Source of the DNA: a virus
IMG/VR virus record: IMGVR_UViG_3300029127_000011
Length of the DNA stretch: 41,981 nucleotides
Reading direction: 5' to 3' (one strand)
Shown here piece after piece: positions 1,748 to 41,981 of the stretch; the stretch's first letter is position 1, and the number at the start of each line of letters is the position of its first letter. Both the position numbers and the translations under genes were made by a program. The notes beneath the pieces are model-generated. The model made no database searches. It had not been told where the DNA came from and saw only the letters and a list, made by a program, of their open reading frames with translations.

Positions 1748-1854
1748 TTTCTTTGGCTTAACCGTGTTGCCTAGGGCTGAAAGTTACTGAATGTTTAAAG
1801 TGCTTATCTCTTAAACACACTGCAAAGATATTAATATTTTTCGGTTCTACCAAA
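1748..1854 (-). promoter_or_regulatory. promoter + 5'UTR cassette copy A (-33 TTTG at 1851-1854, -7 TAtcTTTG at 1823-1830; AAACATTCAG box at 1787-1796)
   Basis: About 105 bp, roughly 85-90% identical to 4360-4464. A 34-nt block, tgcaaagatattaatatttttcggttctaccaaa, is 100% identical. The boxes fit TTTG-N20-TAnnTTTG. Confidence 0.7.
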
Positions 1855-1924: not shown

Positions 1925-1997
1925 AAAAAAAAATACCCCAGCGGTAAAAAAGTCGAGCCGCTGGGGTAATAAGTGGAGACCACTTTAAACATTCAGT
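1925..1997 (-). ncRNA. candidate small RNA of about 70 nt (5' seed CUGAAUGUUUA, hairpin AAGUGG-UCU-CCACUU, terminator hairpin CCCCAGCGG/CCGCUGGGG + UAUUUUUUUUU)
   Basis: A promoter-like box sits 5-6 nt upstream. There are two perfect stem-loops (1971-1985 and 1936-1966) and a U9 tail (1925-1933). No ORF is present. Confidence 0.5.
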
Positions 1998-2001
1998 GAT
2001 G

Positions 2002-2032
2002 CAAAGGTACGCTTTTCCTTTGAAACCACAAA
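2002..2032 (-). promoter_or_regulatory. Bacteroidetes-type promoter for the candidate sRNA (TTTG-N19-TAccTTTG)
   Basis: The plus strand shows caaaggta at 2002-2009 and caaa at 2029-2032, which is TTTG...TAccTTTG on the minus strand. Confidence 0.5.
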
Positions 2033-3825: not shown

Positions 3826-3842
3826 AACTCATCTCTCCTTTC

Positions 3843-4097: not shown

Positions 4098-4110
4098 TGG
4101 TTTTTATTAT

Positions 4111-4359: not shown

Positions 4360-4464
4360 ATTTTCCGCTTGACCGTGATGCGTAGGGCTTAAGTTACTAA
4401 ATGTTTAATGTGCTTATCTCCTAAACACGATGCAAAGATATTAATATTTTTCGGTTCTACCAAA
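4360..4464 (-). promoter_or_regulatory. promoter + 5'UTR cassette copy B (-7 TAtcTTTG at 4433-4440, -33 TTTG at 4461-4464; degenerate box at 4397-4406)
   Basis: Paralogous to 1748-1854. Confidence 0.7.
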
Positions 4465-4552: not shown

Positions 4553-4593
4553 GGCTGTTTTCGGTACGCTTTTGGCTGTTTTCGGTACGCTTT
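4553..4593. repeat. 21-bp-period direct repeat ggctgttttcggtacgcttt x2, with degenerate copies at about 4502-4552
   Basis: The 20-mer at 4553-4572 is identical to 4574-4593. Upstream units ggctattttcggtcgttttt and ggtcgtttcc are related. Confidence 0.85.
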
Positions 4594-4695
4594 CCACGCT
4601 CTATATAATAATAACCTGCACGCATTAGTTAGAATGAATATAATCTAACTCTCATAACCCCTACCCCTTTTCTCTCAATGAAAAGTGTTCTACGC

Positions 4696-4737
4696 ACAAA
4701 AAATGGGCAGAAAAACGCTCTCCTGCGCTTCCTGCCC
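4696..4737 (-). terminator. rho-independent terminator after the lysis operon
   Basis: Minus strand reads GGGCAG-(21 nt)-CTGCCC followed by ATTTTTT, about 30 nt after the stop of 4765..5322. Confidence 0.55.
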
Positions 4738-4764
4738 TTCTAAAAATTGATATTATGATTGAAC

Positions 4765-11227: not shown

Positions 11228-11240
11228 AACTTATATGCTT

Positions 11241-11819
11241 TTAGTTGCCTATTGCGTGAATGTGTGCCCTTGTTCCTCGCTGTGCCTTCACTTCTCCTTT
11301 CGAGGTGAATGCCTTGAGATACTCGAGAGCATCTGATAAATATCTTTCTGCCATATCCATGATGTCGTTGTACTGCTTGTTGCTTGAAACGTCTTGAACA
11401 TGGTCTGAATAATCGTCTCTGTGGCGCATTCCACCTGCTCGGCTTATAATTGTGCCATCGGCACGAAAAAACCTCGCATACGTGAAGTAAGCGAGTGCCT
11501 TGCGTATTCCGCTTGTGTACTTCTGCACCTTGGTTTCGCCTTGGCTGCAATCGCCCTCCTTCTTGGTGGTGTATTCGCCACCGTCCAGGAAAGTTGCAGG
11601 CTGAAAATCGGGCAAGACTGAATCGCCCCACTCTCCCTGCTCGGTCGCTGCCTTGAACCGCTCATACCCGATGGCTGGTATGATGTTCGCATCTTCGCAT
11701 TCTCGAATGTATGCGTTCACTTCATCCTCATCTAGGTGTGTGCTGGTCGGTCGTGCCAGTTTTCGGAACTGATCAACCGTGATAAGTTGTTTTCTTTGCT
11801 CTCCCATAGGCTCAATCAA
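11241..11819 (-). CDS. head-tail connector-like protein (gp6-like pattern)
   Basis: N-terminus LITVDQFRKLARPTSTHLDEDEVNAYIRECEDANIIPAIG resembles gp6-type connector N-termini. It is adjacent to the putative portal. Confidence 0.45.
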   Translation of the reverse strand: MIEPMGEQRKQLITVDQFRKLARPTSTHLDEDEVNAYIRECEDANIIPAIGYERFKAATEQGEWGDSVLPDFQPATFLDGGEYTTKKEGDCSQGETKVQKYTSGIRKALAYFTYARFFRADGTIISRAGGMRHRDDYSDHVQDVSSNKQYNDIMDMAERYLSDALEYLKAFTSKGEVKAQRGTRAHIHAIGN

Positions 11820-29281: not shown

Positions 29282-30041
29282 TGTCTTCCTCCTTTCCTTC
29301 TTGTCTTGGTTTCAGTTCATCAAAGTTCCAGACGATGCGGTCAATATGATCAACTCCCAGAAGCTTGGCAAGGAATGGCTCATCGGCTGGCTTGTAGTGA
29401 ATGATTAAGTTCTCACGTGGCAAAACGCCATCGCCCATTATCGTTGGCAAGTCGTCAGGGGTTAAGTCTTGACCTTCGATTTCAGGAGGTAGTTCCCCTG
29501 CGAATGGGTCGCCCTCTTGGTCGTCCTTGCCTTTCTTCTTGCACTTGCTGGTGCTGCTTGTTTCCACTGGTGCTGGGTTCCAGACTGGCATACCCCAGTT
29601 CTGAAGCTGTGCGCTGTCCCATCGGTTCGCAAGGTCGTTGAAGTCCCAGTTACCGAAGGATAGGTTGTCTTTAATCATAAACTCCTGCTTCTGTGCTTCT
29701 GTCAAGTCTGATGCGCTCACCACGGTAACTGTTGGCTGTTGCTGCCATCCCTGCCAGTACTCCATCAATGCGGATTGCTCATCATCGGAAAGACGCTGCT
29801 CTGCATCCAGCTTCACTTGAATGCCTGCTTCGTCCATCGTGACAATGTGCTGCAAGGCTTTCAGTCTCATGTTGCCACCCAATGCATGGAAGGTCTCATC
29901 AATAACAATCGGGCGCAGGGTCAACATTCGTGGGAACACGATGATGCTCTGCACAAGCTTCTGAAAGTTCGCTTGGCTTATCTCTCTTGGGTTCGCTTCG
30001 TTCTCGCTGACCCTCGATAGTGCGATTTCTTCTGTTTTCAT
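29268..30041 (-). CDS. ParB N-terminal-domain (ParB/Srx-like) protein, paralog 1
   Basis: Contains ENEANPREISQANFQKLVQSI...RPIV...LGGNMRLKAL and MIKDNLSFGNWDFNDL. No methyltransferase domain is attached. Confidence 0.8.
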   Translation of the reverse strand: MKTEEIALSRVSENEANPREISQANFQKLVQSIIVFPRMLTLRPIVIDETFHALGGNMRLKALQHIVTMDEAGIQVKLDAEQRLSDDEQSALMEYWQGWQQQPTVTVVSASDLTEAQKQEFMIKDNLSFGNWDFNDLANRWDSAQLQNWGMPVWNPAPVETSSTSKCKKKGKDDQEGDPFAGELPPEIEGQDLTPDDLPTIMGDGVLPRENLIIHYKPADEPFLAKLLGVDHIDRIVWNFDELKPRQEGKEEDNGEE

Positions 30042-30091
30042 TTTCTTCTTGTTTTAAGTTCGAAATACTGCTTATTTGATAAACACTGGCG

Positions 30092-30099
30092 CAAAGATA
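30092..30099 (-). promoter_or_regulatory. -7 box TAtcTTTG upstream of the ParB/rSAM/terminase operon
   Basis: The plus strand shows caaagata, about 50 nt upstream of the 30041 start. Confidence 0.5.
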
Positions 30100-30165
30100 C
30101 TACTTTTTTGCTTTAGTTGTTCGCTCTTTGCCCACTTTTAACTTTTTCCAACACTTCGTTTTATT

Positions 30166-30708
30166 TTATCCATCAAAGGCTCTGATGGTCTTCTGCAGGG
30201 TTGTCTGCGGTTTCTTCGGCATCACTCTGACCGGGTATCCTGCACAGACCCATGCGAGGAGAAGTGCGTCTCTCTGGTCTTGGTTCATTCTCGGCAACTT
30301 TTGTCCTGCGCTTACAAAATAAGCAATTTCGTCCTGCGTGATTTTTCCGTCCTTCCCATTCCAGCATTTTTTCAATGGCTTGATGATTTCGCAGGGGATA
30401 TTGTAGTGTTTGCAGCACTCGACAATCAAGATTCCGGTCTGATGGTTCATTCCGGTAGAGCGTCCGATTGCTGCTGCCTTGACTGCTGTCATGAAACGAT
30501 TAAGCACATGCCAGTTGCTTTTGTTGAGCCAGCCGCCTTCAATAACGACCTTAATCTTCTTGCAACTCTCGTTCATTGCCTTAAGGTAATCTATCAAAGC
30601 TGGGAAGTTCATTTTATAAGCGAGAAACTTCTTGTCGTCAAAGACTGCTCCAACTCCGCTTTCCTGATTGTCGGGGTCGATTCCGATTATAACTGTTCCT
30701 TTTTCCAT
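30166..30708 (-). CDS. RuvC-like Holliday junction resolvase
   Basis: Contains IIGIDPD, VIEGG and DQRDALLLAW, a RuvC-type acidic catalytic pattern. Confidence 0.72.
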   Translation of the reverse strand: MEKGTVIIGIDPDNQESGVGAVFDDKKFLAYKMNFPALIDYLKAMNESCKKIKVVIEGGWLNKSNWHVLNRFMTAVKAAAIGRSTGMNHQTGILIVECCKHYNIPCEIIKPLKKCWNGKDGKITQDEIAYFVSAGQKLPRMNQDQRDALLLAWVCAGYPVRVMPKKPQTTLQKTIRAFDG

Positions 30709-31183
30709 TTTTTTCTTTAAAGTAATTATTTTGTTTGAATTTCACGCATAAGCGTTTATTTTGTTTTGCTGGTGTAGTTTATTATCCAACACCCTTTACG
30801 TGCGCATATACGTGCGCACATGCGTTATTATCCCTATCTTTCCCCTACCCCTTTCTTTCCCTTCTTTTCGGTTGCGATAGAGAAAGCTGGCAGGGATTCC
30901 GGAAGTTGTGCCTGCGGGTGCAAAATAAATGAATAACAAAATGAATATGTTGAAGGGTTCTTCCTTCTTCCACCGCCAGCCGAATGAATAAAAGCATAAT
31001 TTTCTAACGATTTCTTTTTCTTACTTCCTCATGTACCACCTCGCTTTCTTTGTTTGTTGTCAGACTTCGGGAGATGCGTTTCCGGCTCTCATATCGTAAT
31101 TTCAAGATGTTATAAGTTTATTTGTTTTGATATTAGAGCCTATCTCCTTCTGTCCTCGCTGGTTAAAAACTCTATTATTGAAC

Positions 31184-31489
31184 TCACGACCGATTATTCT
31201 TTTTGTTTTCTAGCAGCCAAGCCAGATGCGCTGCCTGCTGCGGATTCTTGAACAGAGAAAGAGCCTTCTCTACGTCCGGCTTCTTCCTCTCACGCATCGC
31301 TCTGTCGGCTACCCGGTTCTTGGTACCGTAGTTCCGGTAGTGCTTACTCCAGTACTCCTTTTGGTACGCCCGGTACTTTTCCCGGTTTCTCTTTCGCCAT
31401 TCCTTCGTGGCTCTGAGGATCTGTTCCCGGTGTTCCTGGTAGTACGTTCTGTTCTTCTCCCTTGTTACGAAGTCGCTCATTGCATTCAA
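31184..31489 (-). CDS. basic hypothetical protein with Y-x-x-x-(N/H)-R-E-x repeats (start probably the ATG at 31480)
   Basis: Contains REKNRTYYQEHREQILRATKEWRKRNREKYRAYQKEYW. The track start is a TTG. Confidence 0.6.
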   Translation of the reverse strand: MNAMSDFVTREKNRTYYQEHREQILRATKEWRKRNREKYRAYQKEYWSKHYRNYGTKNRVADRAMRERKKPDVEKALSLFKNPQQAAHLAWLLENKKNNRS

Positions 31490-31596
31490 GTATTACCTGA
31501 TGTTCTACATATTGCTTGCGTGCCGGGCAATAGATGCCATTTATGCAGTTTCGCCCGGCATCGCAAGCCTTGCATAATTCACTCGCCATGCGTCCA

Positions 31597-32853
31597 CTAG
31601 AAAGGTAAGTCTACGAAGTCGTAGTCAGTGAAGGCAAAATTCTCGTGACCCTCGTATGGGATGCATTGAGTGAAGTCTGCTGCCTTTCCGCTATGTAAAG
31701 GCAAGACGTTGTATCTAGATGCAAAATCCTCTCCACGGTCACGGACAAAGAACGCTGGAAGCCACTTGAATCCTTTTCCGCACCTTACCAGCACCTTGTC
31801 AAAGGTCTTGAAGGCTGGCTGCTCCTTCGCTTCCTTCTCTTTCTTCCAGATGGCATAATGCTTGTTGAACAGTTCTACTTCGAGTTCTGTTGCTTCCCTG
31901 AGTTCCTTGTGCAAACTGATATTCAGATAGAAGGTTTCATTGGTCACGAAATGCTCGTTCTCGATGTCGTACTGCTCTCCGAATGTCAGCGTGCCATCAC
32001 TTTCGTTCTTGCCGATAACCTTACCGATAACTGCCACCTTTCCGTCCTCGTCTTCATCGTTGAAAACATAGAGTTTGCCGACTTCAAACGCTGGCTTCAA
32101 GTTCACAATCATTTTCTTGTCAGCATCCCAAGCCTTGCCTTCCTCTGCTAGAGCTTCAAAGAGCAGCTGCTTTTCTGAGTCAGTTGCAAATCTATACCCT
32201 TCAGCCGATACACGATTATCGTTAAACAATAATCCAAACGTTTCATCTATAGAAACATAGAAATAAAGGGTATGCTTATAAATCCTTCGACATATTGCAA
32301 CTGATTTTCCATATAACACTATATCTCCATCCTTGAACTCAGGCTGTTTTTCAATCTCCAAGGTCTCACGATTGAGTTTACCGCCCAAAAATTTCTCGAT
32401 AGTGTTGATGTAGGTCTGAGCAGAATCTTTGTTATCTTCAATATGATAGTCTTGTACATTCTGCATTTTCAAACAAGATACATGTCTCTTTTTACTTACA
32501 CTAATCCAGTGTTTACCTTCAAATGTAGTATAATCATTTTTTGAAAAACAATTAAAGATTATATGGCTGTCGCTATCATTGCTAACCAGCACGTCTCCCT
32601 TCTTAAAGAACTTGCTCCAATCTCTCATTTCTTTCGAAGGGAAGAGCAGAGGTTCTCCTTCTTTATCGATTTTTCCGTTCTTGTCGAAAAAGTGTTCTCT
32701 TCCAGCTTCGTCCTCAGTCCAGATTGCTTTCGCACTGTCCTTGTCGTTTGCCATTCCACTGAACCACACCCTTCCACATTTTGACGTGTATAACTCTGTG
32801 CCATACTCTACGTCCTTCAAAATCTCATAAATATCAATATCTTTCTGTTCCAT
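31597..32853 (-). CDS. hypothetical protein (418 aa) with about four internal repeats beginning (K/Q)PxFKxGDxV
   Basis: Repeat starts are FPSKEMRDWSKFFKKGDVLV, KQPEFKDGDIVLY, LKPAFEVGKLYVF and EQPAFKTFDKVLV. An AAACATTCAG box lies 3 nt before the ATG. Confidence 0.8.
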   Translation of the reverse strand: MEQKDIDIYEILKDVEYGTELYTSKCGRVWFSGMANDKDSAKAIWTEDEAGREHFFDKNGKIDKEGEPLLFPSKEMRDWSKFFKKGDVLVSNDSDSHIIFNCFSKNDYTTFEGKHWISVSKKRHVSCLKMQNVQDYHIEDNKDSAQTYINTIEKFLGGKLNRETLEIEKQPEFKDGDIVLYGKSVAICRRIYKHTLYFYVSIDETFGLLFNDNRVSAEGYRFATDSEKQLLFEALAEEGKAWDADKKMIVNLKPAFEVGKLYVFNDEDEDGKVAVIGKVIGKNESDGTLTFGEQYDIENEHFVTNETFYLNISLHKELREATELEVELFNKHYAIWKKEKEAKEQPAFKTFDKVLVRCGKGFKWLPAFFVRDRGEDFASRYNVLPLHSGKAADFTQCIPYEGHENFAFTDYDFVDLPF

Positions 32854-32876
32854 TGTCTGAATGTTTTTATTGTTGT

Positions 32877-33002
32877 TTACAACTTAACGTGTCCGAGTTT
32901 AAAATAAAGTTCCAACAGTTCCTGAGTATTGAGCCAGAAATCGGTGTTGCCAACGAATACGTGATGATGATGATTGTCATTGATGATTTCTATCTTTTTC
33001 AT
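32877..33002 (-). CDS. small ORF (41 aa, MKKIEIINDNHHHH...), below the track cutoff
   Basis: My own translation. Its ATG directly abuts the stop of the upstream small ORF, and it fills an otherwise empty gap. Confidence 0.35.
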   Translation of the reverse strand: MKKIEIINDNHHHHVFVGNTDFWLNTQELLELYFKLGHVKL

Positions 33003-33158
33003 TTATCTACGTTTAAAATTGTTTGTGTCCGCATTGTAATCCTTCAGGATACATTCAAGTGCCTTTACCTCATCATCTGCCAGCCAGATGTCTCTGTTGT
33101 CAACTGACAGATGATGAAGACCACACTCACGGACCAGTTTTATATCAACTCTGTACAT
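33003..33158 (-). CDS. small ORF (51 aa, MYRVDIKLVRECGLHH...), below the track cutoff
   Basis: My own translation. It fills the gap between 33180 and 33002. Confidence 0.35.
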   Translation of the reverse strand: MYRVDIKLVRECGLHHLSVDNRDIWLADDEVKALECILKDYNADTNNFKRR

Positions 33159-33179
33159 AGCTAATACGGTTTATGATAA

Positions 33180-33662
33180 CTATTTAAAAAGTTCTTGTTG
33201 CGGATGAATGATGTCTGCCCGCTTCTTCTTAGCCGCCCAGAGAAGGAGGTTGTTGTTCTTGGTTTCAGCATTCTTCTCGAGGTCTCTGATGATGTAGGTC
33301 AAAGCATCGTACTCCGCTTCTTTCTCGTTACCGTAGAAGATGTTGAGAGTGTCATATCTACTCGGGTAGCCTACCGGGCTGTCGTACCCGTGCTTTCCCT
33401 TCCGAATGCTGTAGCCCCATATCCAGCCGAACTGTGTATTGGCGGTCATTACCTTCCATCCCCAGTTGTCTGCACCCTCTGCGGCATACTCGATTACGTG
33501 CGGATTGATGCAAACATCGTAGATGTTGTACTTGAAGCCTTCGTGCTCTGCGACCGGCTTCTTGATGTCGTAGCTATTATCGGTCAGCCATTTGAACCAG
33601 TCGTCTGAGGTCTTGAATACGAGCCCTGCGGCTCTGCATTCGTGGAAAAATAATTCATTCAT
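33180..33662 (-). CDS. hypothetical protein (160 aa)
   Basis: ORF in the early operon. Confidence 0.75.
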   Translation of the reverse strand: MNELFFHECRAAGLVFKTSDDWFKWLTDNSYDIKKPVAEHEGFKYNIYDVCINPHVIEYAAEGADNWGWKVMTANTQFGWIWGYSIRKGKHGYDSPVGYPSRYDTLNIFYGNEKEAEYDALTYIIRDLEKNAETKNNNLLLWAAKKKRADIIHPQQELFK

Positions 33663-33666
33663 GGCT

Positions 33667-33903
33667 TTAAATCTTTACGAAGTGTACGTCCTTGCGGTCT
33701 TCTCTTTCACTATTCAGACAAGCAAGATTCCTGCACATAATGCCTTCTCTCTTACCGTTCAAGATGCACTCGTAGCAGTTATATTCAGATAGACCTATAT
33801 CCTCAACAACCTTGCAATTTACACCTTCAATGCTAATTGTCGCCCCTACTGGGTAATCTGTATTAAAGCATTCGTTGTTTACAATACATACTTCTTTTGC
33901 CAT
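33667..33903 (-). CDS. Cys-rich small protein (78 aa), possible zinc-binding
   Basis: Several Cys pairs are present (CIVNNEC, CYEC, CRNLAC). Confidence 0.6.
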   Translation of the reverse strand: MAKEVCIVNNECFNTDYPVGATISIEGVNCKVVEDIGLSEYNCYECILNGKREGIMCRNLACLNSEREDRKDVHFVKI

Positions 33904-33999
33904 AATTCTTTTGTTTTAAGTGTTTAAAATATGTTTGCCTTATAATTTACCGCCCGAAGCGTGAAAACGGCTCAGAGCGGCTGATTTTGCCCTCATTCG

Positions 34000-35079
34000 T
34001 TATTTTTCGGGCTTCCAGTCGATGCCCAGCCGCTGCAGAACTCCACGTTCGTAGTATCTTGTCAGCGAATCCTTGACAGGCTTGTTGTTCGGGTTCTTCT
34101 TCAAGTCTGCAAGGTTCTGCTGGATTACCCACCGGAACTTGCTGTCTTGGCTCTGCTGGCTCGCTGGCTGCTGGTGCTTGGCTTGCTCGTAGAGTTCCCC
34201 GATGCTCGGTCTTGCCGTTGGATCCTGCGCCCTGGCTGCTGCCGATTGCGGCTGCTGGCTCGCTGGCTTGGTGTTGTCGTAGTTGCCCTCCAGCACCTTC
34301 GGGAAATACTTCCTTGTCATTACCCAGTCGTACGATGCCCAGGAGTGCCCTGCGTTCAGATAGTCGCTAGCCATAGCCTTGTCGATGGCTAGGTAAATCT
34401 TGGAAATATCTCCCTTGCAGTCCTTGAGCCTTCCTCTGATTGCCTCCTTGCGGTTTTCCGTCATCAGCGTCAGCCTTCGCATTGCGCTGTTGGTCTTGTC
34501 GTGCTGCTCGTTCCAGTAGTCCTTGATGGCTGCGTAGTCGATTTCGCCTTTCTTGGATTTCTTCTTCTCAGAACTTTTTTGCGGTTCTTCTGCAGCGCAA
34601 ACGTTTTTCCGAGAAAAACTTTGCATAGAAGCTTCTTTAGAAGGTTCTAATATATTATCTGTTTCTTTAGAAACATCATTAACATCTACATTATCATAAA
34701 CATTATCATTTACATATACATTATCATTATCATATAAGGTTTTTGAAAAAACCTCTTGGTTTTGTTTGGTTATTTCTGAAACCTCTTGGTTTTTATCTAA
34801 ACCAATTGGTTTTTGTTTATCCTCTTGGTTTTTTCTTGGTCTGCCACCCTTTTTGCCATTGGCTCGCCATCGTTCTACCTTCTCTTCGTACTTGGCTTTA
34901 TTCCGTTTCATATCGTCAACGATAAAACCGAAAGCCATACGAACGACTGGTTCGAGACTAATAGTCTCCCCATCCCTTGCGTAGAGAAATATCGCTCTCG
35001 TCAGTTGCCCGAGTTGTTCATCGGTCAGCCCCTCGATAAGAGCGTAGTATGATGTGTATAAGATGAATGAATCGTTCAT
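34000..35079 (-). CDS. replisome organizer / replication initiator-like protein
   Basis: The N-terminus FILYTSYYALIEGLTDEQLGQLTRAIFLY...KAKYEEKVERWRANGKKGGRP and the C-terminal conserved phage domain are joined by a low-complexity linker that carries DNA iterons. Confidence 0.72.
   Translation of the reverse strand: MNDSFILYTSYYALIEGLTDEQLGQLTRAIFLYARDGETISLEPVVRMAFGFIVDDMKRNKAKYEEKVERWRANGKKGGRPRKNQEDKQKPIGLDKNQEVSEITKQNQEVFSKTLYDNDNVYVNDNVYDNVDVNDVSKETDNILEPSKEASMQSFSRKNVCAAEEPQKSSEKKKSKKGEIDYAAIKDYWNEQHDKTNSAMRRLTLMTENRKEAIRGRLKDCKGDISKIYLAIDKAMASDYLNAGHSWASYDWVMTRKYFPKVLEGNYDNTKPASQQPQSAAARAQDPTARPSIGELYEQAKHQQPASQQSQDSKFRWVIQQNLADLKKNPNNKPVKDSLTRYYERGVLQRLGIDWKPEK
34688..34840. promoter_or_regulatory. 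candidate origin of replication inside the organizer gene (3x acattatcat AT-rich repeats + 4 iterons CCTCTTGGTTTT/CCAATTGGTTTT)
   Basis: acattatcat occurs at 34688, 34700 and 34718. Iterons start at about 34752, 34782, 34802 and 34821, giving 30/20/19-bp spacing. Confidence 0.55.
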
Positions 35080-35085
35080 GATGCT

Positions 35086-35262
35086 TTATTCTGATAATGA
35101 TAATTTCTTTTCCAGCTTCCGTTTGAGCACGGTGGCCATACGGATTTTGTTCCGCTGGCTTGTGTCGGTCGGTGCTGTCACTTCCCCACCTAGGGAAATA
35201 TAATTCTCCAGTTGGGAAATTATATTCCTTAGGTCGGTTTTTGATATAGGAACGCTAGCCAT
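35086..35262 (-). CDS. small ORF (58 aa, MASVPISKTDLRNIISQLENY...), below the track cutoff
   Basis: My own translation. It fills the 35080-35273 gap. Confidence 0.4.
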   Translation of the reverse strand: MASVPISKTDLRNIISQLENYISLGGEVTAPTDTSQRNKIRMATVLKRKLEKKLSLSE

Positions 35263-35273
35263 AAGCCCTGCCT

Positions 35274-36215
35274 TTACTTAATGAGCAATCTTCGTGCTCC
35301 CTGCACCTGCTTGATGTACTTGGCGCACGCTTTAGGATGGTCTGCCTGAAAAGCCTTGGCATCGAACTTCTCGCTTGCCTTCGGTGCTTTCCACGTTGCC
35401 AGCGTCTTGCCGTTTCCGTCCACGATGCTCTCTGCGTCCCCGAAGAACAGCTTCAAGTTGTCCTCGATCTCCTTCTGTCGGTTCTCGAGTGTCTTGCTCT
35501 TCTCCTTGATTTCCTTCAACTCGATGAGCATGTCCCCGATTTCGGCTGTGGCTTCAATCTCCTTTCCTGCCTTGTGCAGTGGAGACTTCAGGAGAACGTC
35601 TTGTGCGCTGTACGCAGGTGGTTCTTGGTTGCCCACGATGTAGTCAAGCCAGAATTTGGTTATCTCGTCCCTCATCCATCCGAAGAACTCGGGGTCGAAA
35701 TCGATGTCACGGTAGCCGAACTCCCTGCCTGCTGTCAGCCAGGCAAGTGCTCCATCTTTGTACTCGCCAACTCCGAGGTTCATCTGTAGCTGGCAGAACC
35801 AGTGCTTCGGAAGGTCGTCTGCATCTATCTGCATCTGCGTGGTCTTGCACTCGAGGATGCTCTTGCTCGCTTCGTTGTGCGTTGCAGAGACTCTCCAGAA
35901 GGTGCGGTCAGGAGATACACGCAGATACGGAGTATCGGTGTTCGTGATAGTGTAGTCGTCCGTGCTCGCCTTGATTATGTGGCAGTGGCTCTCTCGCTTG
36001 AAGAACTGCGCCACGGCATCCTCCAGCAGATGTCCTGCGACCATCGCAAAGTTCTCAACCTTTGGTGGGTCGATACCCTTCTTCCTTCGCCACAGCTGGT
36101 ATGGTGTTTCCCATGGGTTCAGTCCCAGCACCGTACCTGCCTCTGATGCGCCTATTCCCTTCGAGCGGTTCTGCAACCACTCCTCTCTGCTTTTGTATTT
36201 TATTATCTGTTTCAT
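35274..36215 (-). CDS. YqaJ-like / lambda-Exo-type recombination exonuclease
   Basis: Contains GIGASEAGTVLGLNPWETPYQLW and a PD-(D/E)XK-like core (SPDR...ECKT). Confidence 0.88.
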   Translation of the reverse strand: MKQIIKYKSREEWLQNRSKGIGASEAGTVLGLNPWETPYQLWRRKKGIDPPKVENFAMVAGHLLEDAVAQFFKRESHCHIIKASTDDYTITNTDTPYLRVSPDRTFWRVSATHNEASKSILECKTTQMQIDADDLPKHWFCQLQMNLGVGEYKDGALAWLTAGREFGYRDIDFDPEFFGWMRDEITKFWLDYIVGNQEPPAYSAQDVLLKSPLHKAGKEIEATAEIGDMLIELKEIKEKSKTLENRQKEIEDNLKLFFGDAESIVDGNGKTLATWKAPKASEKFDAKAFQADHPKACAKYIKQVQGARRLLIK

Positions 36216-36227
36216 TGTCTGAATGTT

Positions 36228-36527
36228 TTATTTATCAAAAAAGAATTTTCTAGCTGCTGTAATAACGATTGTGCGAAGGAATTTATCCCTTTGCATTGCT
36301 TGAGCAATTCCATCTGCGAGGTAAGCGGTTTTACCGTGGTAAGCAATATGAAAATCGAATCCTTGGTTTCCGTCTTCATCTGCATCTCCAGTCGGCTCTA
36401 TTGCAGCCTGCAGATAGCATCTTTCTTCTTCGGCTTCTTCTGCCCATGCCTTGTACCCATCTGCGGTTCTGCTGAAGTACTTGTCGATGGTGCTCTTGTG
36501 TTTCTGATTGTTTTCTTTTTCTGCCAT
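36228..36527 (-). CDS. hypothetical protein (99 aa)
   Basis: ORF with an AAACATTCAG box 7 nt before the ATG. Confidence 0.65.
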   Translation of the reverse strand: MAEKENNQKHKSTIDKYFSRTADGYKAWAEEAEEERCYLQAAIEPTGDADEDGNQGFDFHIAYHGKTAYLADGIAQAMQRDKFLRTIVITAARKFFFDK

Positions 36528-36643
36528 ATTATTACTGAATGTTTAAAAATTGCCACGGCTTCCCTTGGTAGGTTATGATGGGAGCCCACCCCATAGGTTG
36601 TGCCGTGGCGGTTCGGGCAAACGTTATAACTTTATAAACTAAA

Positions 36644-37504
36644 CTACTTCTTCGCTGCTGTGCCAGTCTTGCCTTGGCTGCGGTTCATTGCCTTCTGCGC
36701 CTTGTTCTTGGCATCATCGGCTGCTGCCTGCGCCTGCTGTGCGATGGCTTCCTGCAGCTTTGGCTTCTTGAAGGTCTCCTCTACGGTGGTCGTGCCTTCC
36801 TTGATAGCGTTGTACACACCAGCCAGCTTCTGAATATCCTCTGCCGTGACTTCCTCGGCTGATTTCTTGCCCAGGTATTCCAGCAGCATAAGGTCTGTTA
36901 CCTGGTACACTTGGAAGCAGGCTACGCAGCTCTTCCACTGGCTCTGTACGCCAGTCTGCTTGATGTGCTCAAGTGCCTTTGCCTGCACTTCCTTCACCAC
37001 GCTTGCAATCAATACCTGCGGCACGACCTTGCAGATTGCGTTACGCTGGGCAATCGCAACCGCTGCATTACCAACTACCACCTGCATATCCTGCGAGAAG
37101 GTGTATCCCTTCGAGGTCAGAATGCTGCGCTTCACTTCTACGGAGTAGGCAACGTTGCTCTCGAGGTCGTGACAGACGCCTTGTGCCGTAATGGTCTTGC
37201 CATCGTTTGCGATGATGCGACCTGCGATGCGAAGGTTCTTCCAGCATGCAGAAATAATTTCTGTAAATCTCACGCTAGGACCCTCAATAACCGACACCTG
37301 ACCATCCTTGCCCTTGCGCTCTAGGTGGTAGAAGCAGTTGTATGCTACATCATCGTCCATGGCTGCCAATGCTACCATGTTCTGCTTGCATTGCATGATG
37401 TCTCTCGGGAACTTGTGCGCTGTTGCAATCTGTCCGTCAATCTCCGAGCGGTTGATAGCTTCCAGCATTTCGCCACCGCTTACATTGATAATTTCATTTT
37501 CCAT
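36644..37504 (-). CDS. single-strand annealing protein (RecT/Red-beta-like), partner of the exonuclease
   Basis: 286 aa, in synteny with the YqaJ exonuclease, with a basic/Ala-rich tail. The family call is by resemblance. Confidence 0.6.
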   Translation of the reverse strand: MENEIINVSGGEMLEAINRSEIDGQIATAHKFPRDIMQCKQNMVALAAMDDDVAYNCFYHLERKGKDGQVSVIEGPSVRFTEIISACWKNLRIAGRIIANDGKTITAQGVCHDLESNVAYSVEVKRSILTSKGYTFSQDMQVVVGNAAVAIAQRNAICKVVPQVLIASVVKEVQAKALEHIKQTGVQSQWKSCVACFQVYQVTDLMLLEYLGKKSAEEVTAEDIQKLAGVYNAIKEGTTTVEETFKKPKLQEAIAQQAQAAADDAKNKAQKAMNRSQGKTGTAAKK

Positions 37505-37550
37505 AATTCGTTCTTTTTATTGTTCAACATAATCTTTTAATTAACTCTAG

Positions 37551-37629
37551 TGGAAGGCTGGGGATTCGAACCCCAGTTGACTGCCAAAACTTACCCCCCC
37601 CCTTGCCAGCTGCCGAGGGATGCCCTTCC
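37551..37629 (-). other. tRNA-like element: perfect T-arm (TGGGG-TTCGAAT-CCCCA) + acceptor-like ends, degenerate anticodon arm, G9 tract
   Basis: Minus strand reads ggaaggg...ccct-cggcagctggca-aggg...ggcag-tcaac-tggggttcgaatcccca-gccttcc-a. No anticodon stem can be paired. Confidence 0.45.
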
Positions 37630-37768
37630 GTTGCAGGGCGCACGCTGTCGTTTCCGCATATTACATGGTAAAAACAACTAATTTTAGATAACCTTGAAAA
37701 ATGAGTTTTGCGTGCGCCCTTTGCCCTGCCGCTGCAGAAAGCCATATAATAATTGTTTAACATCGTAA

Positions 37769-38110
37769 TCAAACCAGTTGAGCCATAAGGCTGTCGAGCC
37801 TGCTTTCCTCGAAGGCGTCCATCGGGTCTTGGTCTGCGTATTGGCTGTTCTCTTCCAGCCAGTCGTCCATCACGTCCTGATAGTTGACGCAGCCCTCGAT
37901 GGCTTCCTCCAGCCGCTCGCTGTCGTTGTTGCTATTCTTGTGCGTCACGACCGCTGTGTTCCCGGTTCTGTCGCACCAGACTGAAATGCCGCCTGCCTTT
38001 GTTTTAATGTCTACCCTTGCAACCGCTGGTTGCTGCGGGTCACGGTCTAACTCCAGCCAGATGGCATCGTACATTGCCTCTTCGCATTGTTTGATAATTC
38101 TTGGTTCCAT
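37769..38110 (-). CDS. acidic hypothetical protein (113 aa)
   Basis: ORF in the early operon. Confidence 0.65.
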   Translation of the reverse strand: MEPRIIKQCEEAMYDAIWLELDRDPQQPAVARVDIKTKAGGISVWCDRTGNTAVVTHKNSNNDSERLEEAIEGCVNYQDVMDDWLEENSQYADQDPMDAFEESRLDSLMAQLV

Positions 38111-38114
38111 AATG

Positions 38115-38612
38115 CTAAATTCTTCTTTTAATCACGACATTCCATTTGTCTTCCGGGAAAATCTTACGGATCGTTTCGATACATTTATTAAGTTCTTTGA
38201 GTGAGCAAAACGCATCCACCAGGTCACCTTCTTCGTACCATTCCCATCTTTTAGTGTCTGCCGCTTCCTCTTTTGAAAGAGGTCTGACTATGCTCGCTTT
38301 GAATCCCTGGTACTCGTTAGGAATCTTTATGCCACCAAGGTATCCTCCTACAATTTTATTTCCGCTTCTGTTTACCACGGGAATACTAATAGAGCAATAG
38401 TAATGCTCTGCTCCACCACAATAACCTATATAAGAAGTTATGCAAAACTCCACATCACGCTTTCCTTTCGTATAATCACCTTTTGTGGTATATTTCTCAC
38501 CATCAAGATCAAGGCAGAAGGTGAAGCCTTCTCCAATCGTGCTAGGAATAGGAGCTTCCATTTCCGTAATATCGGCTCCACGTTCCACTCGTATCATTTC
38601 TTTCCAATTCAT
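38115..38612 (-). CDS. hypothetical protein (165 aa)
   Basis: ORF in the early operon. Confidence 0.7.
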   Translation of the reverse strand: MNWKEMIRVERGADITEMEAPIPSTIGEGFTFCLDLDGEKYTTKGDYTKGKRDVEFCITSYIGYCGGAEHYYCSISIPVVNRSGNKIVGGYLGGIKIPNEYQGFKASIVRPLSKEEAADTKRWEWYEEGDLVDAFCSLKELNKCIETIRKIFPEDKWNVVIKRRI

Positions 38613-38616
38613 AACC

Positions 38617-38868
38617 TTACCGTCTGCTTAAATAGTTAAATAATGTCAGACGTGCGTCCGCAAGCGTCTGCTTGTTAAACTCGCTCATCGGGAGCACCGG
38701 TATTCCGTCCAGTGAAAGACAAAGCATGTTGTCGAACTCCCTTACCTGAATGCGTCTTTCCGCTTCCTTAATGGTTGCCAGTCGCTTGTTGTCCTTTCGC
38801 TCCTGCTCCCACTTGGCGGTAAGCTGCTTCGCTTTCTTGTATGCCTGCATCATAGGGCAACCCTCCAC
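38617..38868 (-). CDS. hypothetical protein (83 aa)
   Basis: ORF in the early operon. Confidence 0.6.
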   Translation of the reverse strand: MEGCPMMQAYKKAKQLTAKWEQERKDNKRLATIKEAERRIQVREFDNMLCLSLDGIPVLPMSEFNKQTLADARLTLFNYLSRR

Positions 38869-39047
38869 GCTCTCTTGATTTCTGCCCCCTCGATAACCTT
38901 GCGGTTGTCGATTCTGCGGAACTTGACCTTCATCTTACCAGCCTGCAACCATCTGCGCAGGGTGTTTCGATGGATGCCCAGCACCTTGCAGGTCTCTGTC
39001 ATGGTGTATCTGCCTGCATCCGCTACCTTTGGTTCTTCGTTCGTCAT
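38850..39047 (-). CDS. HTH_17/excisionase-family DNA-binding protein (65 aa)
   Basis: YTMTETCKVLGIHRNTLRRWLQAGKM is a typical Xis/MerR-type winged HTH. Confidence 0.6.
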   Translation of the reverse strand: MTNEEPKVADAGRYTMTETCKVLGIHRNTLRRWLQAGKMKVKFRRIDNRKVIEGAEIKRAWRVAL

Positions 39048-39048
39048 A

Positions 39049-39141
39049 TTAAGCCCTCCAAAAGATTAAAGTTACTAATACGATGGCAACTGCCAGGGAT
39101 AATACTTCGTCACTTGTGATAATCTCGATAAACTTCTTCAT
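39049..39141 (-). CDS. tiny membrane peptide ORF (30 aa, MKKFIEIITSDEVLSLAVAIVLVTLIFWRA)
   Basis: My own translation. Its stop lies 1 nt before the next ATG, and an AAACATTCAG box lies 5 nt before its ATG. Confidence 0.3.
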   Translation of the reverse strand: MKKFIEIITSDEVLSLAVAIVLVTLIFWRA

Positions 39142-39173
39142 ACGCTCTGAATGTTTAAATTGGTTCTACTTGA

Positions 39174-39416
39174 TTATTTGCGCACGGTTGCACGTCTCTT
39201 CTTTGGTGTAATAACTCCAGCCTTGATGAGGATAACACGCACGTTTTGCTGGGTGCAACCAACACGCTGTGATACTGCGAGCATTATTCTGCTGTCTGAG
39301 GTCTCGGCAGGTGCTTTTGCTCGGAAATCTGCAAACATCGCTATGATGTTCTTCTTTCTTTCGTCCTGCTGCTTCTGCAGTGGGGTTCTGAAATCATAAT
39401 TAAAATTTTCTCCCAT
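39174..39416 (-). CDS. Cro-like HTH regulator, first gene of the early leftward operon
   Basis: Contains RIMLAVSQRVGCTQQNVRVILIKAG (HTH) and is divergent from the repressor gene. Confidence 0.6.
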   Translation of the reverse strand: MGENFNYDFRTPLQKQQDERKKNIIAMFADFRAKAPAETSDSRIMLAVSQRVGCTQQNVRVILIKAGVITPKKRRATVRK

Positions 39417-39444
39417 TTTATTTGTATTTTACAATTATTTTCTT

Positions 39445-39452
39445 TATCTTTG
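39445..39452 (+). promoter_or_regulatory. rightward promoter -7 box TAtcTTTG (TTTG at 39421-39424, N20 spacing)
   Basis: Exact match to the consensus spacing, upstream of the repressor gene. Confidence 0.55.
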
Positions 39453-39458
39453 CAAATG

Positions 39459-39473
39459 AGTTTTTAAACTCGC
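39459..39473. promoter_or_regulatory. candidate operator palindrome GAGTTT-tt-AAACTC in the promoter overlap zone
   Basis: 6-2-6 perfect inverted repeat. Additional GTTTTTAA-type half-sites lie at 39532-39560, and a 14-bp palindrome AAAACAATTGTTTT lies at about 39512-39525. Confidence 0.4.
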
Positions 39474-39488
39474 TTTGTAATTCGGTTG

Positions 39489-39496
39489 CAAAAATA
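39489..39496 (-). promoter_or_regulatory. leftward promoter -7 box TAttTTTG
   Basis: The plus strand shows caaaaata. It lies to the right of the rightward promoter, so the two 5'UTRs would overlap. Confidence 0.45.
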
Positions 39497-39574
39497 CAAA
39501 AAGAAAATTGAAAAACAATTGTTTTGTGGTTGTTTTTAATAAGTTTTTAATTAGTTTTAAATTGATTTACAATT

Positions 39575-39931
39575 ATGAGCGGTGAAGAGTTAAAGAAGTA
39601 TATTAAGCGTTCGGGCTTGACAATGAGCGATGTAGCTAGAGAACTGGGTACTACACCACAGAATGTGCAGGCTCGTCTTGGACGCAAAACTATAAAAATT
39701 GATTTTATCCAAAAGATAAAGGAAATCATCGACAGATGTGCCCCTCCTCTCCCTGCTGAGATGGAAGCGGCTGTTACCGGTTCAAACGTCAATGGTTCGA
39801 ACAGTTCCAACGTTTCCCAGCCAATAGGTAGCGATGCTGCCTTGGCTGCTGAAAACAAACTGCTGCGAGAACAGAATGAGTTCCTGCAAAGTCAAGTAAA
39901 AACGCTGCTTGCCATTGTGGGACAGAAATAA
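39575..39931 (+). CDS. CI-like HTH repressor with a C-terminal leucine-zipper-like coiled coil
   Basis: Contains LKKYIKRSGLTMSDVARELGTTPQNVQARL (HTH) and ENKLLREQNEFLQSQVKTLLAIV. Confidence 0.7.
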   Translation: MSGEELKKYIKRSGLTMSDVARELGTTPQNVQARLGRKTIKIDFIQKIKEIIDRCAPPLPAEMEAAVTGSNVNGSNSSNVSQPIGSDAALAAENKLLREQNEFLQSQVKTLLAIVGQK

Positions 39932-39936
39932 TTTAG

Positions 39937-39944
39937 TAACTTTG
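39937..39944 (+). promoter_or_regulatory. -7 box TAacTTTG upstream of the membrane-protein operon
   Basis: Exact TAnnTTTG about 15 nt before the 39959 ATG, which implies a very short leader. Confidence 0.4.
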
Positions 39945-39958
39945 CAAAATGAAAAAGA

Positions 39959-40192
39959 ATGGTTAGTCAGAAAACAACAGATGATAGGGAGACGGACAGA
40001 AGAAAACTCTTGGCTGGGTATCTGTACGACTGCTCGAAAATGATGTACGGAAGCGTTGCTGTCGGTGGTCTGTCTCCTCTACTAACTGGTGACCCATTGC
40101 AGGCGGTTCATCAAGTCTGCTTGGTGTCGGGTGTGGCTTGTGGCGCATCACTTGCGTACCTTGCAAATTATATAATGAAATTTAAAAAATAA
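39959..40192 (+). CDS. small membrane protein (77 aa)
   Basis: Two hydrophobic segments (SVAVGGLSPLL and VCLVSGVACGASLAYL). Confidence 0.5.
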   Translation: MVSQKTTDDRETDRRKLLAGYLYDCSKMMYGSVAVGGLSPLLTGDPLQAVHQVCLVSGVACGASLAYLANYIMKFKK

Positions 40193-40197
40193 AGATT

Positions 40198-40302
40198 ATG
40201 GATGCATTCTTGTTATTTAACGTGATGGCATTGGGAATGACCATTGCATTCGGCATTTTCTTGAAATCAAAGAAAGGTCAGAAGTGGTTGCGTGAACTTT
40301 AG
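40198..40302 (+). CDS. tiny membrane peptide ORF (34 aa, MDAFLLFNVMALGMTIAFGIFLKSKKGQKWLREL)
   Basis: My own translation. A single TM helix followed by a basic tail. Confidence 0.3.
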   Translation: MDAFLLFNVMALGMTIAFGIFLKSKKGQKWLREL

Positions 40303-40344
40303 TTCTCGCTCCAGGTACAATATCAACTAAAATTCTAAGTAACG

Positions 40345-40794
40345 ATGAAAGATGAGGATTTCATAGAGCGGAAGGAGAAGGTTCTTCTTGCCGCTCTCGG
40401 TAAAAGCTGGCTATGGAAAGCCAGCAGGTTGATAATAGGCATTATCCCTCCAGTGGGTGCGTTTGTGATGCTGGTGCACTGCACCCTGCTCTCGTTCGGC
40501 ATTCGGGTAAAACTCACGGAGTGGATATTCGACTGCTCGCTCTTCGGCTTCATCGCCTGGATCATCGTCAGTCTAGCCTATGGGTTCTGCTGGGTGCATC
40601 GGGCGTTCTCTACCTACAGAGTGCTGATTTCGTTCTGCATCGACTTCCAGCGTTCCTTCGGGTTCGGTGTCTTGTGCCATCCGCTCCATCTGCTGATGGT
40701 CGCCCTAGGGCTGCTTCTCTTCTTCATCTTCATCAAGAAAAAGGCTTGGAATGAGTTCTACGAAAGAAATATTAATCATTTAAACGAAAAGTAA
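40345..40794 (+). CDS. polytopic membrane protein (149 aa, about 4 TM)
   Basis: Hydrophobic helices throughout. Part of the lysogeny-strand operon. Confidence 0.7.
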   Translation: MKDEDFIERKEKVLLAALGKSWLWKASRLIIGIIPPVGAFVMLVHCTLLSFGIRVKLTEWIFDCSLFGFIAWIIVSLAYGFCWVHRAFSTYRVLISFCIDFQRSFGFGVLCHPLHLLMVALGLLLFFIFIKKKAWNEFYERNINHLNEK

Positions 40795-40795
40795 T

Positions 40796-41284
40796 ATGAA
40801 AAAGATAATAATGTTATTCGTGCTTGCGCTTGCGTGCGTGGGTGTGCGTTCGCAAACACTTTTATCTAGGAGTTATGACGTTTCTCCAGTTATTAGCTAC
40901 ACCGTTTTTGAGCCGCAAAAAGACACGGTGTATTACTGGCAGATAAACAATGTTAATTCAGCCAAGATGATTGAATCTTTCTATCTTAGGTTTCGTGGAA
41001 GAAACGAACTGCAAAGAACGCTCAAATTTCTTGTCTCACTTGAAGGTGAAGAAAAGGGTAGGACTTACAGGCTTGACGACACGATTGACGGAAACGAGGT
41101 AACAACTGGAAAGGTAGAAGGTTTCCTCTTTATCCCATCCGCAGAAGGTGTTACCATCGAAAACAAAAAAGGGTTTCTTCCATCCTCATCATTCTATACC
41201 TACAAAAGTCTAGCTGATGTTGCCAAAGGTGGCTTTGATGAAATTAAAAGAAAGAAACAACCTCGGCAATTCTTGTTTGAATGA
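40796..41284 (+). CDS. secreted protein or lipoprotein (162 aa)
   Basis: Signal peptide MKKIIMLFVLALACVGVRSQ. The start lies 1 nt after the upstream stop. Confidence 0.7.
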   Translation: MKKIIMLFVLALACVGVRSQTLLSRSYDVSPVISYTVFEPQKDTVYYWQINNVNSAKMIESFYLRFRGRNELQRTLKFLVSLEGEEKGRTYRLDDTIDGNEVTTGKVEGFLFIPSAEGVTIENKKGFLPSSSFYTYKSLADVAKGGFDEIKRKKQPRQFLFE

Positions 41285-41466
41285 AGTATCTTAGCGTTCT
41301 TCTCGCCTACGAGAAATATTTGCCAGTGCTAACCCCTTCCGAGGTGGATGGTCTGCTGGCTTCTCGTCCCTCGCTGGCTCAGTTGCAGGACTGGTCGCAA
41401 AGATTGAATAATCATCGGGCAAGGCTGGAAAGCGTTTTCAGTCGTGCCTACAAAAAGATAAAATGA
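41281..41466 (+). CDS. hypothetical protein (61 aa)
   Basis: ATGA overlaps at both ends indicate translational coupling. Confidence 0.5.
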   Translation: MKYLSVLLAYEKYLPVLTPSEVDGLLASRPSLAQLQDWSQRLNNHRARLESVFSRAYKKIK

Positions 41467-41804
41467 ATATGGAAGATAAAAATCTGATGTCCGCTGATGT
41501 GGATATAGTAGTTCGTTTCTTCTCTGCCATCGACCGCCTGAAGGCTGATGGTTGCATTGGCGGTCTGAAGACAATAACCGACCGGTATGGCATCAACCGC
41601 TGGAACATCATGTCCCTGCGTGAAAAGCCTACCGAGTACTACGGTCGCTTTCGTCCGTCTTGGGTTCAGTTCCTAGTCCGTGACTACCACATAAACCCAT
41701 ACTGGCTGCTCCTTGGCTCTGGGGAGTTCTATGCGACTGGCTTCACGCCCGAAATCGTGAAAAACCTGAATAAAAACTGCACAAGAAAAAAGCAGTCTGC
41801 ATAA
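41463..41804 (+). CDS. HTH DNA-binding regulator (113 aa), Bacteroidetes prophage-repressor-like
   Basis: The ending ...HINPYWLLLGSGEFY is the characteristic tail of XRE/CI-type HTH domains. Confidence 0.6.
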   Translation: MNMEDKNLMSADVDIVVRFFSAIDRLKADGCIGGLKTITDRYGINRWNIMSLREKPTEYYGRFRPSWVQFLVRDYHINPYWLLLGSGEFYATGFTPEIVKNLNKNCTRKKQSA

Positions 41805-41882
41805 GTTTTTAATTTTCAATTATTTAGAACATACGTTATGATTTTAAGTACAACTTTACTGTTTTTCCCAGTATTTAAAGGG

Positions 41883-41981
41883 GTTCTTTGATACTCTGAT
41901 AACTTAAAAATGCCGCAATAATGCACCATGTTGCACAATTGCGGCTCTTAACGCTGAAAATAAACTGAACAAAAACTGCAC
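41883..41981. repeat. 99-bp direct terminal repeat, copy 2
   Basis: Identical to bases 1-99. Confidence 0.97.

Follow-up and report, generated by a model that had tools for sequence, protein, structure and literature searches.

Organization of the Locus

The DNA considered here is a 41,981-nucleotide virus sequence (IMG/VR record IMGVR_UViG_3300029127_000011), and by "the window" we mean this entire stretch. Its sequence marks it as a temperate phage of the Bacteroidota with Segatella (Prevotella) copri as its host. Nearly all the genes of the window are coded on the minus strand. A leftward early operon, which starts at about 39416 on that strand and includes an HTH_17 gene, a YqaJ gene, and a DUF6291 replication gene, is followed downstream by the packaging, structural, and lysis genes, and an accessory region adjoins the gene of an integrase with an Arm-DNA-bind_5 domain (105-1271). 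Two elements of this genome are the subject of our analysis. The first is a sequence of 10 nucleotides (nt), the box, that is repeated in one orientation before a small number of start codons; the second is a short unit beside the integrase gene, which is predicted to encode a small RNA and which contains the antisense of the box.

The box, CTGAATGTTT, has six exact copies in the window, five on the plus strand (starting at 1787, 32857, 36219, 36535, and 39147) and one on the minus strand (1987-1996), versus a mean of 0.20 and a maximum of 2 in 100 dinucleotide-preserving shuffles. On the coding minus strand it reads AAACATTCAG, so that the five plus-strand copies appear in the mRNA as AAACAUUCAG; a copy with one mismatch, CTAAATGTTT, lies at 4397-4406. 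The gaps between box and ATG are 5, 7, 3, and 3 nt for four open reading frames (ORFs) and 37 and 39 nt for two leaders, and the 17-mer AAAACATTCAGACAATG is present at both 32857 and 36219. All of this reproduces the original prediction, which had reported the repeated and oriented 10-mer with its positions, strands, and distances to the ATGs and had noted the 17-mer shared by the starts of the gene for a 418-amino-acid (aa) protein and the YqaJ gene. Its argument that neither coding constraint nor a promoter consensus explains the box also holds, and the scattering of copies through coding sequence in both orientations, which it had named as grounds for abandoning the idea, was not found. Its expectation of 0.04 copies, by contrast, was naive: some 42,000 10-mers are implicitly tested, and others reach five or six copies in the window (for example, TTGATGCGCT occurs six times), all of them inside long ORFs. 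When one mismatch is allowed, there are 12 copies versus 4.8 expected, and 12 or more were obtained in 2 of the 100 shuffles. This is a modest enrichment, and the one-mismatch copies lie mostly in ordinary coding sequence. The box is distinguished by its location and orientation, not by copy number alone.

A looser pattern, TTTAAAAC or AATTTAAA, is found 10-20 nt before the ATG of many genes (e.g., at 8689, 9003, 10698, 14132, 16603, 26742, 33002, and 33903). It is overlapped by the first half of the box and fits the A/T-rich initiation regions of Bacteroidota, which lack a Shine-Dalgarno sequence.

The Predicted Small RNA

The single reversed copy of the box, which had been set aside as an exception in the original prediction, appears instead to be the 5' pairing region of a small-RNA unit that extends from promoter to terminator. 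The predicted RNA is noncoding and about 76 nt long (1925..2000, minus strand, with an inferred 5' end). Its promoter, TTTG-N19-TACCTTTG (2002..2032, minus strand), consists of a -33 TTTG at 2032-2029, a 19-nt spacer, and a -7 element TACCTTTG at 2009-2002. We scanned with the consensus TTTG-N18-21-TAnnTTTG[C/A] (sigma-ABfr consensus, PMC7366714; S. copri motifs, bioRxiv 10.1101/2024.04.05.588293), and only five sites in the 42-kb window match it in full (+39421, -8283, -4464, -2032, and -1854), the small-RNA promoter being one of them. The exact antisense of the box, CUGAAUGUUUAAAG, begins 5 nt after this promoter. The core of the pairing region, CUGAAUGUUU (1987..1996, minus strand), is the only antisense copy of the box in the window, and the extended pairing region, ACUGAAUGUUUAAAGUG, covers approximately 1981-1998 on the same strand. 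There follow, still on the minus strand, a first hairpin (AAGUGG-UCU-CCACUU, 1985-1971), a GC-rich terminator hairpin (1967-1935), and a U9 tail (1933-1925); as read from its hairpin and U9, the terminator works as such on the minus strand only. The RNA is predicted to fold with -27.5 kcal/mol (z = -3.9), leaving its first 16-18 nt unpaired (18 in the centroid structure).

The unit contains no conserved ORF, and single-base insertions and deletions occur in its relatives. A plus-strand ORF at 1999-2358, for which the reversed box would be the start region, was considered and rejected: it overlaps a gene with an LPD11 domain, and in relatives its ATG has shifted or, as in loci L163 and L164, disappeared. 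There were no Rfam matches to the whole window at gathering thresholds, and a permissive scan of 1600-2100 gave a best E value of 0.08, far below gathering. On sequence evidence, then, the unit has the properties of an independent transcription unit that are expected of trans-encoded small RNAs (its own promoter, a Rho-independent terminator, and no ORF), and its conserved seed, predicted to be accessible, is complementary to several mRNAs from other parts of the genome. Directly upstream of its promoter is a 58-aa ORF (2034-2210, minus strand) with a weak match to MazE antitoxins (E = 7e-5, below the cutoff), whose 3' end overlaps the -33 region.

Predicted Target Boxes and Their Genes

The complementarity between the small RNA and the six sense boxes, all of which are read on the minus strand, spans 10-17 nt. 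Sliding a 24-nt seed along the whole genome in search of duplexes gave too much noise from GC-rich chance duplexes, and scans for exact complements and of start regions were used instead. In the early operon, the box AUUUAAACAUUCAG (39147..39160) lies 5 nt before the ATG of the operon's second gene (39049..39141, minus strand), which encodes a 30-aa single-helix membrane peptide (MKKFIEIITSDEVLSLAVAIVLVTLIFWRA), and the predicted duplex has an energy of -15.1 kcal/mol. This small ORF stops 1 nt short of the HTH_17 gene (38850-39047). A second box, UUUUAAACAUUCAGU (36534..36548; -16.7 kcal/mol), lies 7 nt before the ATG of a 99-aa gene (36228-36527). The two remaining start-proximal boxes, both AAACAUUCAG with a duplex of -12.2 kcal/mol, are each 3 nt before an ATG: that at 36219..36228 precedes the gene of the YqaJ/RecE-like exonuclease (35274-36215), and that at 32857..32866 precedes the 418-aa gene (31597-32853).

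The other two boxes are in leaders. That of the 87-aa gene (1484-1747) contains CACUUUAAACAUUCAGU (1786..1802), 39 nt before the ATG, which is complementary to the small RNA at 17 of 17 nt (-24.0 kcal/mol). The leader of the 82-aa gene (4111-4359) contains AAACAUUUAG (4397..4406), 37 nt before the ATG; its sole difference is a C to U change, at which pairing is retained as G-U. Searches of Pfam, PHROG, NCBIfam, and PDB found no function for the 418-aa, 99-aa, 82-aa, and 87-aa proteins or for an 80-aa protein, and no GenBank phage was matched by 30000-41981 in a megablast search.

These two leaders are homologous, and each has an identical 34-nt full-consensus promoter, TTTGGTAGAACCGAAAAATATTAATATCTTTG, at 1823-1854 and 4433-4464 (minus strand); a partial third copy of the promoter (4475-4491) is located just upstream of the latter. 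Between box and ATG there is a second conserved RNA-like element, GCCCTAsGCAwCACGGTyAAGCs (1755-1777 and 4366-4388, minus strand), which is present in at least 119 IMG/VR contigs of many sizes (loci L195-L290 among them). Among the matches listed, it is always 9-10 nt before an ATG and stands ahead of at least 58 different genes, and its positions 7 and 23 are C:G in 80 cases and G:C in 45, with 6 exceptions. This covariation points to a small stem. The element has no counterpart in Rfam and is possibly a translational operator or enhancer.

Conservation in Close Relatives

A protein search with YqaJ led to 224 IMG/VR loci, of which 80 with 95-100% identity were kept as close relatives. The 17-mer CTGAATGTTTAAAGTGG marks the unit in 87 IMG/VR contigs and in four S. 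copri genomes; in the scan of genome contigs most matches to the 17-mer were due to chance, and it is only these four S. copri records that have the full unit. Strain HDE04 of S. copri (NZ_CP152346) is a carrier of the unit. Together, the unit and its boxes are kept in more than 100 contigs of related S. copri phages and prophages, in which the flanks and the downstream genes vary, and, to judge from the contig names, at least 20 near-complete contigs that have boxes also have the unit. The 10-nt core is altered in only 1 of 34 distinct variants of the unit. Variation is concentrated in the loops, the hairpin loop taking at least eight forms, and the stems have undergone compensatory changes (CCCAAGCGG/CCGCTTGGG and GTGGC..GCCAC). 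Similarity among the relatives stops directly after the U-tail. In two loci, L277 and L324, the same core is found on an otherwise different scaffold of hairpin and terminator.

The boxes, too, bear the marks of selection. In 170 related loci there are 348 sense copies, and the antisense copies are confined to the small-RNA genes. Of 257 distinct box contexts, 84% have the start of an ORF (ATG-initiated, at least 25 aa) 1-10 nt beyond the end of the box and 15% have it 37-40 nt beyond, versus 10.6% for random positions. The box at the YqaJ start is kept despite varying flanks, and at the position equivalent to 32857 it precedes different genes in different relatives. In 52 distinct leader boxes, the substitutions in the core are A>G and C>U, both of which keep a G-U pair, and one C>A; there is no U>C or G>A. 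The small RNAs of the window type are too similar to one another for pair-count statistics.

Such a distribution has to be weighed against two explanations that dispense with RNA pairing. Boxes that sit at gene boundaries, where the downstream genes differ among relatives, could be short linkers between modules that promote recombination among mosaic phages, the small-RNA-like unit merely happening to contain one; a module exchange that has carried boxes along is in fact seen in the more distant locus L193. Linkers, however, would not require that a transcription unit begin with an antisense copy, nor would they be expected to tolerate G-U-type changes or to covary at orthologous sites in the manner described below, and we find this explanation highly improbable. 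The box might alternatively be a DNA operator recognized by a sequence-specific regulatory protein, in which case 1987-1996 would be an operator over the start of the small unit and differences among lineages would reflect the coevolution of operator and protein. The reversed copy is at about +1 to +15 of its promoter, a classic operator position; the phage encodes helix-turn-helix proteins, and temperate phages normally have lineage-specific sets of operators. But the sites are nonpalindromic, 99% of the 257 contexts are at a fixed short distance from starts, mostly within operons and not at promoters, their orientation is strictly that of the mRNA except in the one promoter-terminator unit, and transitions are tolerated only if they are compatible with G-U pairing. 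We therefore regard a DNA operator as very unlikely.

Covariation in Distant Relatives

The original prediction had proposed looking for the box at orthologous starts in related phages. Close relatives do keep it there; in the distant relatives, with a YqaJ identity of 62-84%, the canonical box is missing from most sites, and other boxes are present, which match each phage's own small RNA. These phages have a homologous promoter-seed-hairpin-terminator unit in synteny, flanked by the accessory genes on one side and the convergent integrase gene on the other. In six of the seven distant relatives with such a unit the 5' pairing sequence is different, and the seventh keeps the core on another scaffold. 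A plain k-mer search for alternative boxes failed, and the boxes emerged after the small RNA of each phage had been located by synteny: boxes complementary to the resident RNA are found at orthologous start regions in six of the seven.

The homologous units of loci L188, L189, L190, L193, and L323 have different 5' sequences, each with complementary stretches of 10-16 nt at orthologous starts or leaders. L189 has a 15-nt match 10 nt before the gene preceding YqaJ and a 14-nt match 7 nt before the small-peptide gene. In L193, a 16-nt match lies 3 nt before the small-peptide gene, and two 11-nt matches lie in an accessory-gene leader and a start region. L323 has an 11-nt match 3 nt before the small-peptide gene and a 10-nt match in the start region of an accessory gene. 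The matches of L188 are one of 10 + 5 nt with a bulge at the small-peptide gene and one of 10 nt in the leader orthologous to window position 1787, and at the same two kinds of site L190 matches its RNA at 13 of 14 and 12 of 13 nt. In L188, L190, and L193, the counterpart of the 87-aa gene's leader has a different box, which in each phage matches the small RNA encoded there. The start of the 30-aa gene is the most widely conserved of the predicted target positions: orthologues of the small hydrophobic peptide (27-42 aa) are present in all eight lineages, and in seven of the eight the box covaries with the small RNA. At the position of the 99-aa-gene box, L189 has its 15-nt box of its own type, and L324 also has a box.

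In all eight lineages a TAnnTTTG element is placed 4-5 nt before the complementary stretch of the small RNA. Overlapping sub-segments of the pairing region (9-17 nt) are used differently by different targets, which counts further against a DNA operator. When the duplex energies of the eight RNA 5' ends with the eight small-peptide start regions were arranged in an 8 x 8 matrix, the cognate RNA was best in seven of the eight columns, and the true assignment of RNAs to genomes was the single best of the 40,320 permutations. Seeds and target sites have undergone compensatory covariation, and we take this, within the reach of sequence comparison, as the decisive evidence that RNA and box would pair.

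Two further explanations fare poorly against this covariation. An RNA operator to which a phage-encoded repressor or activator of translation binds, as RegA does in T4, would account for a box that abuts the starts of several early mRNAs, the antisense copy being then coincidental. Coincidence, however, leaves unexplained why the 5' end of a conserved unit should be antisense to the boxes in eight lineages and change along with them, and no candidate RNA-binding protein was found among the proteins of the window; we give very little credence to this explanation. The box could also be a ribosome-recruiting or enhancer element, a substitute for the Shine-Dalgarno sequence that pairs with the host rRNA or otherwise boosts initiation. 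The overlap of its first half with the general A/T-rich TTTAAAAC-like pattern 10-20 nt before many starts, which fits what is known of Bacteroidota starts (PMC7366714), is in favor of such a role. Yet lineages with close YqaJ homologues and shared synteny differ in their boxes, which follow the small RNA of each phage and not some invariant molecule of the host. On inspection the box is not complementary to the CCUCC anti-Shine-Dalgarno sequence and has no AGGAGG-like content, and only 6 of the approximately 64 genes in the window have it. An enhancer is for these reasons scarcely credible.

The comparison with distant relatives yielded several additional observations. A 10-nt match to its own small RNA in L188 (about 4388-4397, minus strand) lies some 37 nt upstream of the integrase ATG; the integrase could be a target in that phage also, with about 0.5 such 10-mers expected by chance. 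About 1 kb upstream of its small-RNA unit, L193 encodes a 111-aa protein (3031-3366) that matches PF24203 (Phage_ProQ_C_like), a homologue of which was not detected in the window; it could be an RNA chaperone supplied by the phage, since Bacteroidota are reported to be without ProQ and Hfq. In L189, the intergenic region downstream of the YqaJ gene (11119-11792) contains at least three tandem 24-nt repeats (TGATAGTGTAAGTGATAG...; 11457-11522), which may be origin iterons. L191 is integrated beside a host trmE/mnmE-like gene (2195-5014; TrmE_N, MnmE_helical), and L322 has at about 6320-6370 a sequence resembling the 3' half of a tRNA, a probable attachment site. TAGT and radical-SAM genes, which probably serve in DNA modification, are also present in relatives.

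Proposed Mechanism and Role

From these findings we consider it quite likely that the phage encodes a trans-acting antisense RNA whose regulon lies in the phage's own genome and for which the box is the docking site. The RNA would be transcribed from its own sigma-ABfr-type promoter and would end at the intrinsic terminator, and its unstructured 5' end, ACUGAAUGUUUAAAGUG, would pair with the AAACAUUCAG boxes on at least six phage mRNAs, forming duplexes that span roughly -4 to -20 of the start region. Ribosomes of the Bacteroidota require an A-rich, single-stranded start region (PMC7366714). Pairing should block initiation because four of the boxes lie 3-7 nt upstream of starts in an A/U-rich region that lacks a Shine-Dalgarno sequence and needs to be single-stranded. 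As the stop of the 30-aa ORF abuts the next gene, blocking this ORF would probably lower the expression of the tightly packed early genes downstream. The two further boxes lie in the 5' leaders of accessory genes equipped with promoters. Pairing probably represses translation and does not activate it; repression is also the effect of GibS of Bacteroides thetaiotaomicron, an RNA whose unstructured 5' seed acts on translation initiation regions (PMC7366714).

Several observations weigh against this proposal. L322 has the unit, and no convincing box was found within the 21 kb examined. In the mosaic L193, the 99-aa and YqaJ starts keep window-type boxes even though the small RNA of that phage is different. 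These orphan boxes are either recent imports or have some value without a cognate RNA; as their flanks are nearly identical to the window, the recent import of a module is the simplest explanation. Each match of L188 has a length of only 10 nt, at which chance alone would yield about 0.5 match. In the window, the duplexes of the two boxes that form only 10 base pairs are weak (-12 kcal/mol). Locus L168 has a single change in the core of the RNA, CCGAAUGUUU, its one visible box being unchanged, with no compensating box. The asymmetry of the substitutions in the leader boxes is suggestive only, because the variants are not independent evolutionary events. Finally, the S. copri transcriptome paper (bioRxiv 10.1101/2024.04.05.588293) does not mention phage, and its supplements hold no matching sequence.

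As to the occasion on which such an RNA would be used, we favor expression in the lysogen and an immunity-like role, because the promoter is a consensus promoter of the housekeeping type and because the unit is located beside the integrase gene. The RNA would be made constitutively in the lysogen and would silence leaky or incoming early transcripts with a specificity peculiar to each lineage. A late shut-off of the early genes is the main alternative role and is possible. The bolder proposal is that the RNA is the immunity determinant of a large group of S. copri temperate phages, silencing both resident and incoming phages with matching boxes, and that heteroimmunity groups are defined by the joint diversification of seed and box. 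This we advance only tentatively, and we think it somewhat more apt to prove wrong than right. If it is true, then the early operon and the recombination and accessory genes would be silenced, module exchange such as that in L193 would create hybrids with cross-sensitivity, and this would be the first RNA-specified immunity outside the enterobacterial phages P1, P7, and P4, in a phylum that has neither Hfq nor ProQ.

The host, S. copri, is among the most abundant and health-associated bacteria of the human gut, and post-transcriptional control in the Bacteroidota is poorly known. The phage group is itself common in gut metagenomes: the closest YqaJ cluster at 90% identity (P0001) has 3,900 member sequences, and the group extends to hundreds of IMG/VR contigs. 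An RNA and a box that are compact and easy to mutate, and that come with natural specificity variants, would provide a ready test system in which to ask how a small RNA blocks translation where there is neither a Shine-Dalgarno sequence nor Hfq, whether RNA serves gut Bacteroidota phages in immunity or in timing, and whether such RNA-box parts could be used as orthogonal repressors in Segatella engineering.

Comparison with Known Systems

One parallel is the c4 antisense RNA of phages P1 and P7, which belongs to the immI operon c4-icd-ant. By pairing where ribosomes load on a small ORF that leads an operon, it governs the genes downstream, and its specificity differs between related phages, in that case by a few base changes that result in heteroimmunity; the RNA proposed here may be alike in both respects. 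However, c4 is processed from the transcript of its own target and serves one operon, whereas the RNA of the window would have its own promoter and at least six dispersed starts and leaders as targets. Its unit is at the integrase end, remote from the early operon (30-37 kb from the early-operon boxes in the linear window; in circularly permuted relatives such as L188 the small-peptide box is about 4.4 kb away), and is not part of the operon transcript of its targets. The CI RNA of the satellite phage P4 is likewise an RNA immunity factor with several complementary sites (seqA, seqC) on phage transcripts; its source is the leader of the operon under its control, from which it is cut, and it acts by premature termination of transcription, whereas here the boxes abut starts, which suggests translational control. 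Type I toxin-antitoxin systems (tisB/istR-1, zor/orz) share with our locus a hydrophobic peptide, here of 27-42 aa, whose start is complementary to a small RNA. In the present case, however, the RNA gene neither adjoins nor overlaps the peptide gene, and there would be at least five further targets.

Among trans-acting small RNAs of phages, DicF of Qin, AgvB and AsxR of enterohemorrhagic Escherichia coli, and VpdS of VP882 (PMC12197685) are also short, terminator-ended, prophage-carried, and base-pairing, but their targets are chiefly mRNAs or small RNAs of the host, and they belong to Proteobacteria systems. The same review (PMC12197685), which notes c4 as well, has no mention of "Bacteroid", and our literature search found no base-pairing RNA described for phages of the Bacteroidota. 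The trans-encoded small RNAs of Bacteroidota chromosomes, such as GibS and MasB of B. thetaiotaomicron and SrcF of S. copri (PMC7366714; PMC10994844; bioRxiv 10.1101/2024.04.05.588293), resemble the predicted phage RNA in their sigma-ABfr-type promoter, in their intrinsic terminator, and in an unstructured 5' seed directed at initiation regions without a Shine-Dalgarno sequence, in the same phylum without Hfq and ProQ. Those RNAs, however, are chromosomal and regulate host metabolism, whereas the phage RNA, about 76 nt long and unrelated to them in sequence, has recognizable targets in the phage's own genes. What would be new in it, relative to the known base-pairing RNAs of phages, is the combination of an independent promoter, a seed at the 5' terminus, six or more targets dispersed through the phage's own genome, and a seed and boxes that have diversified together.

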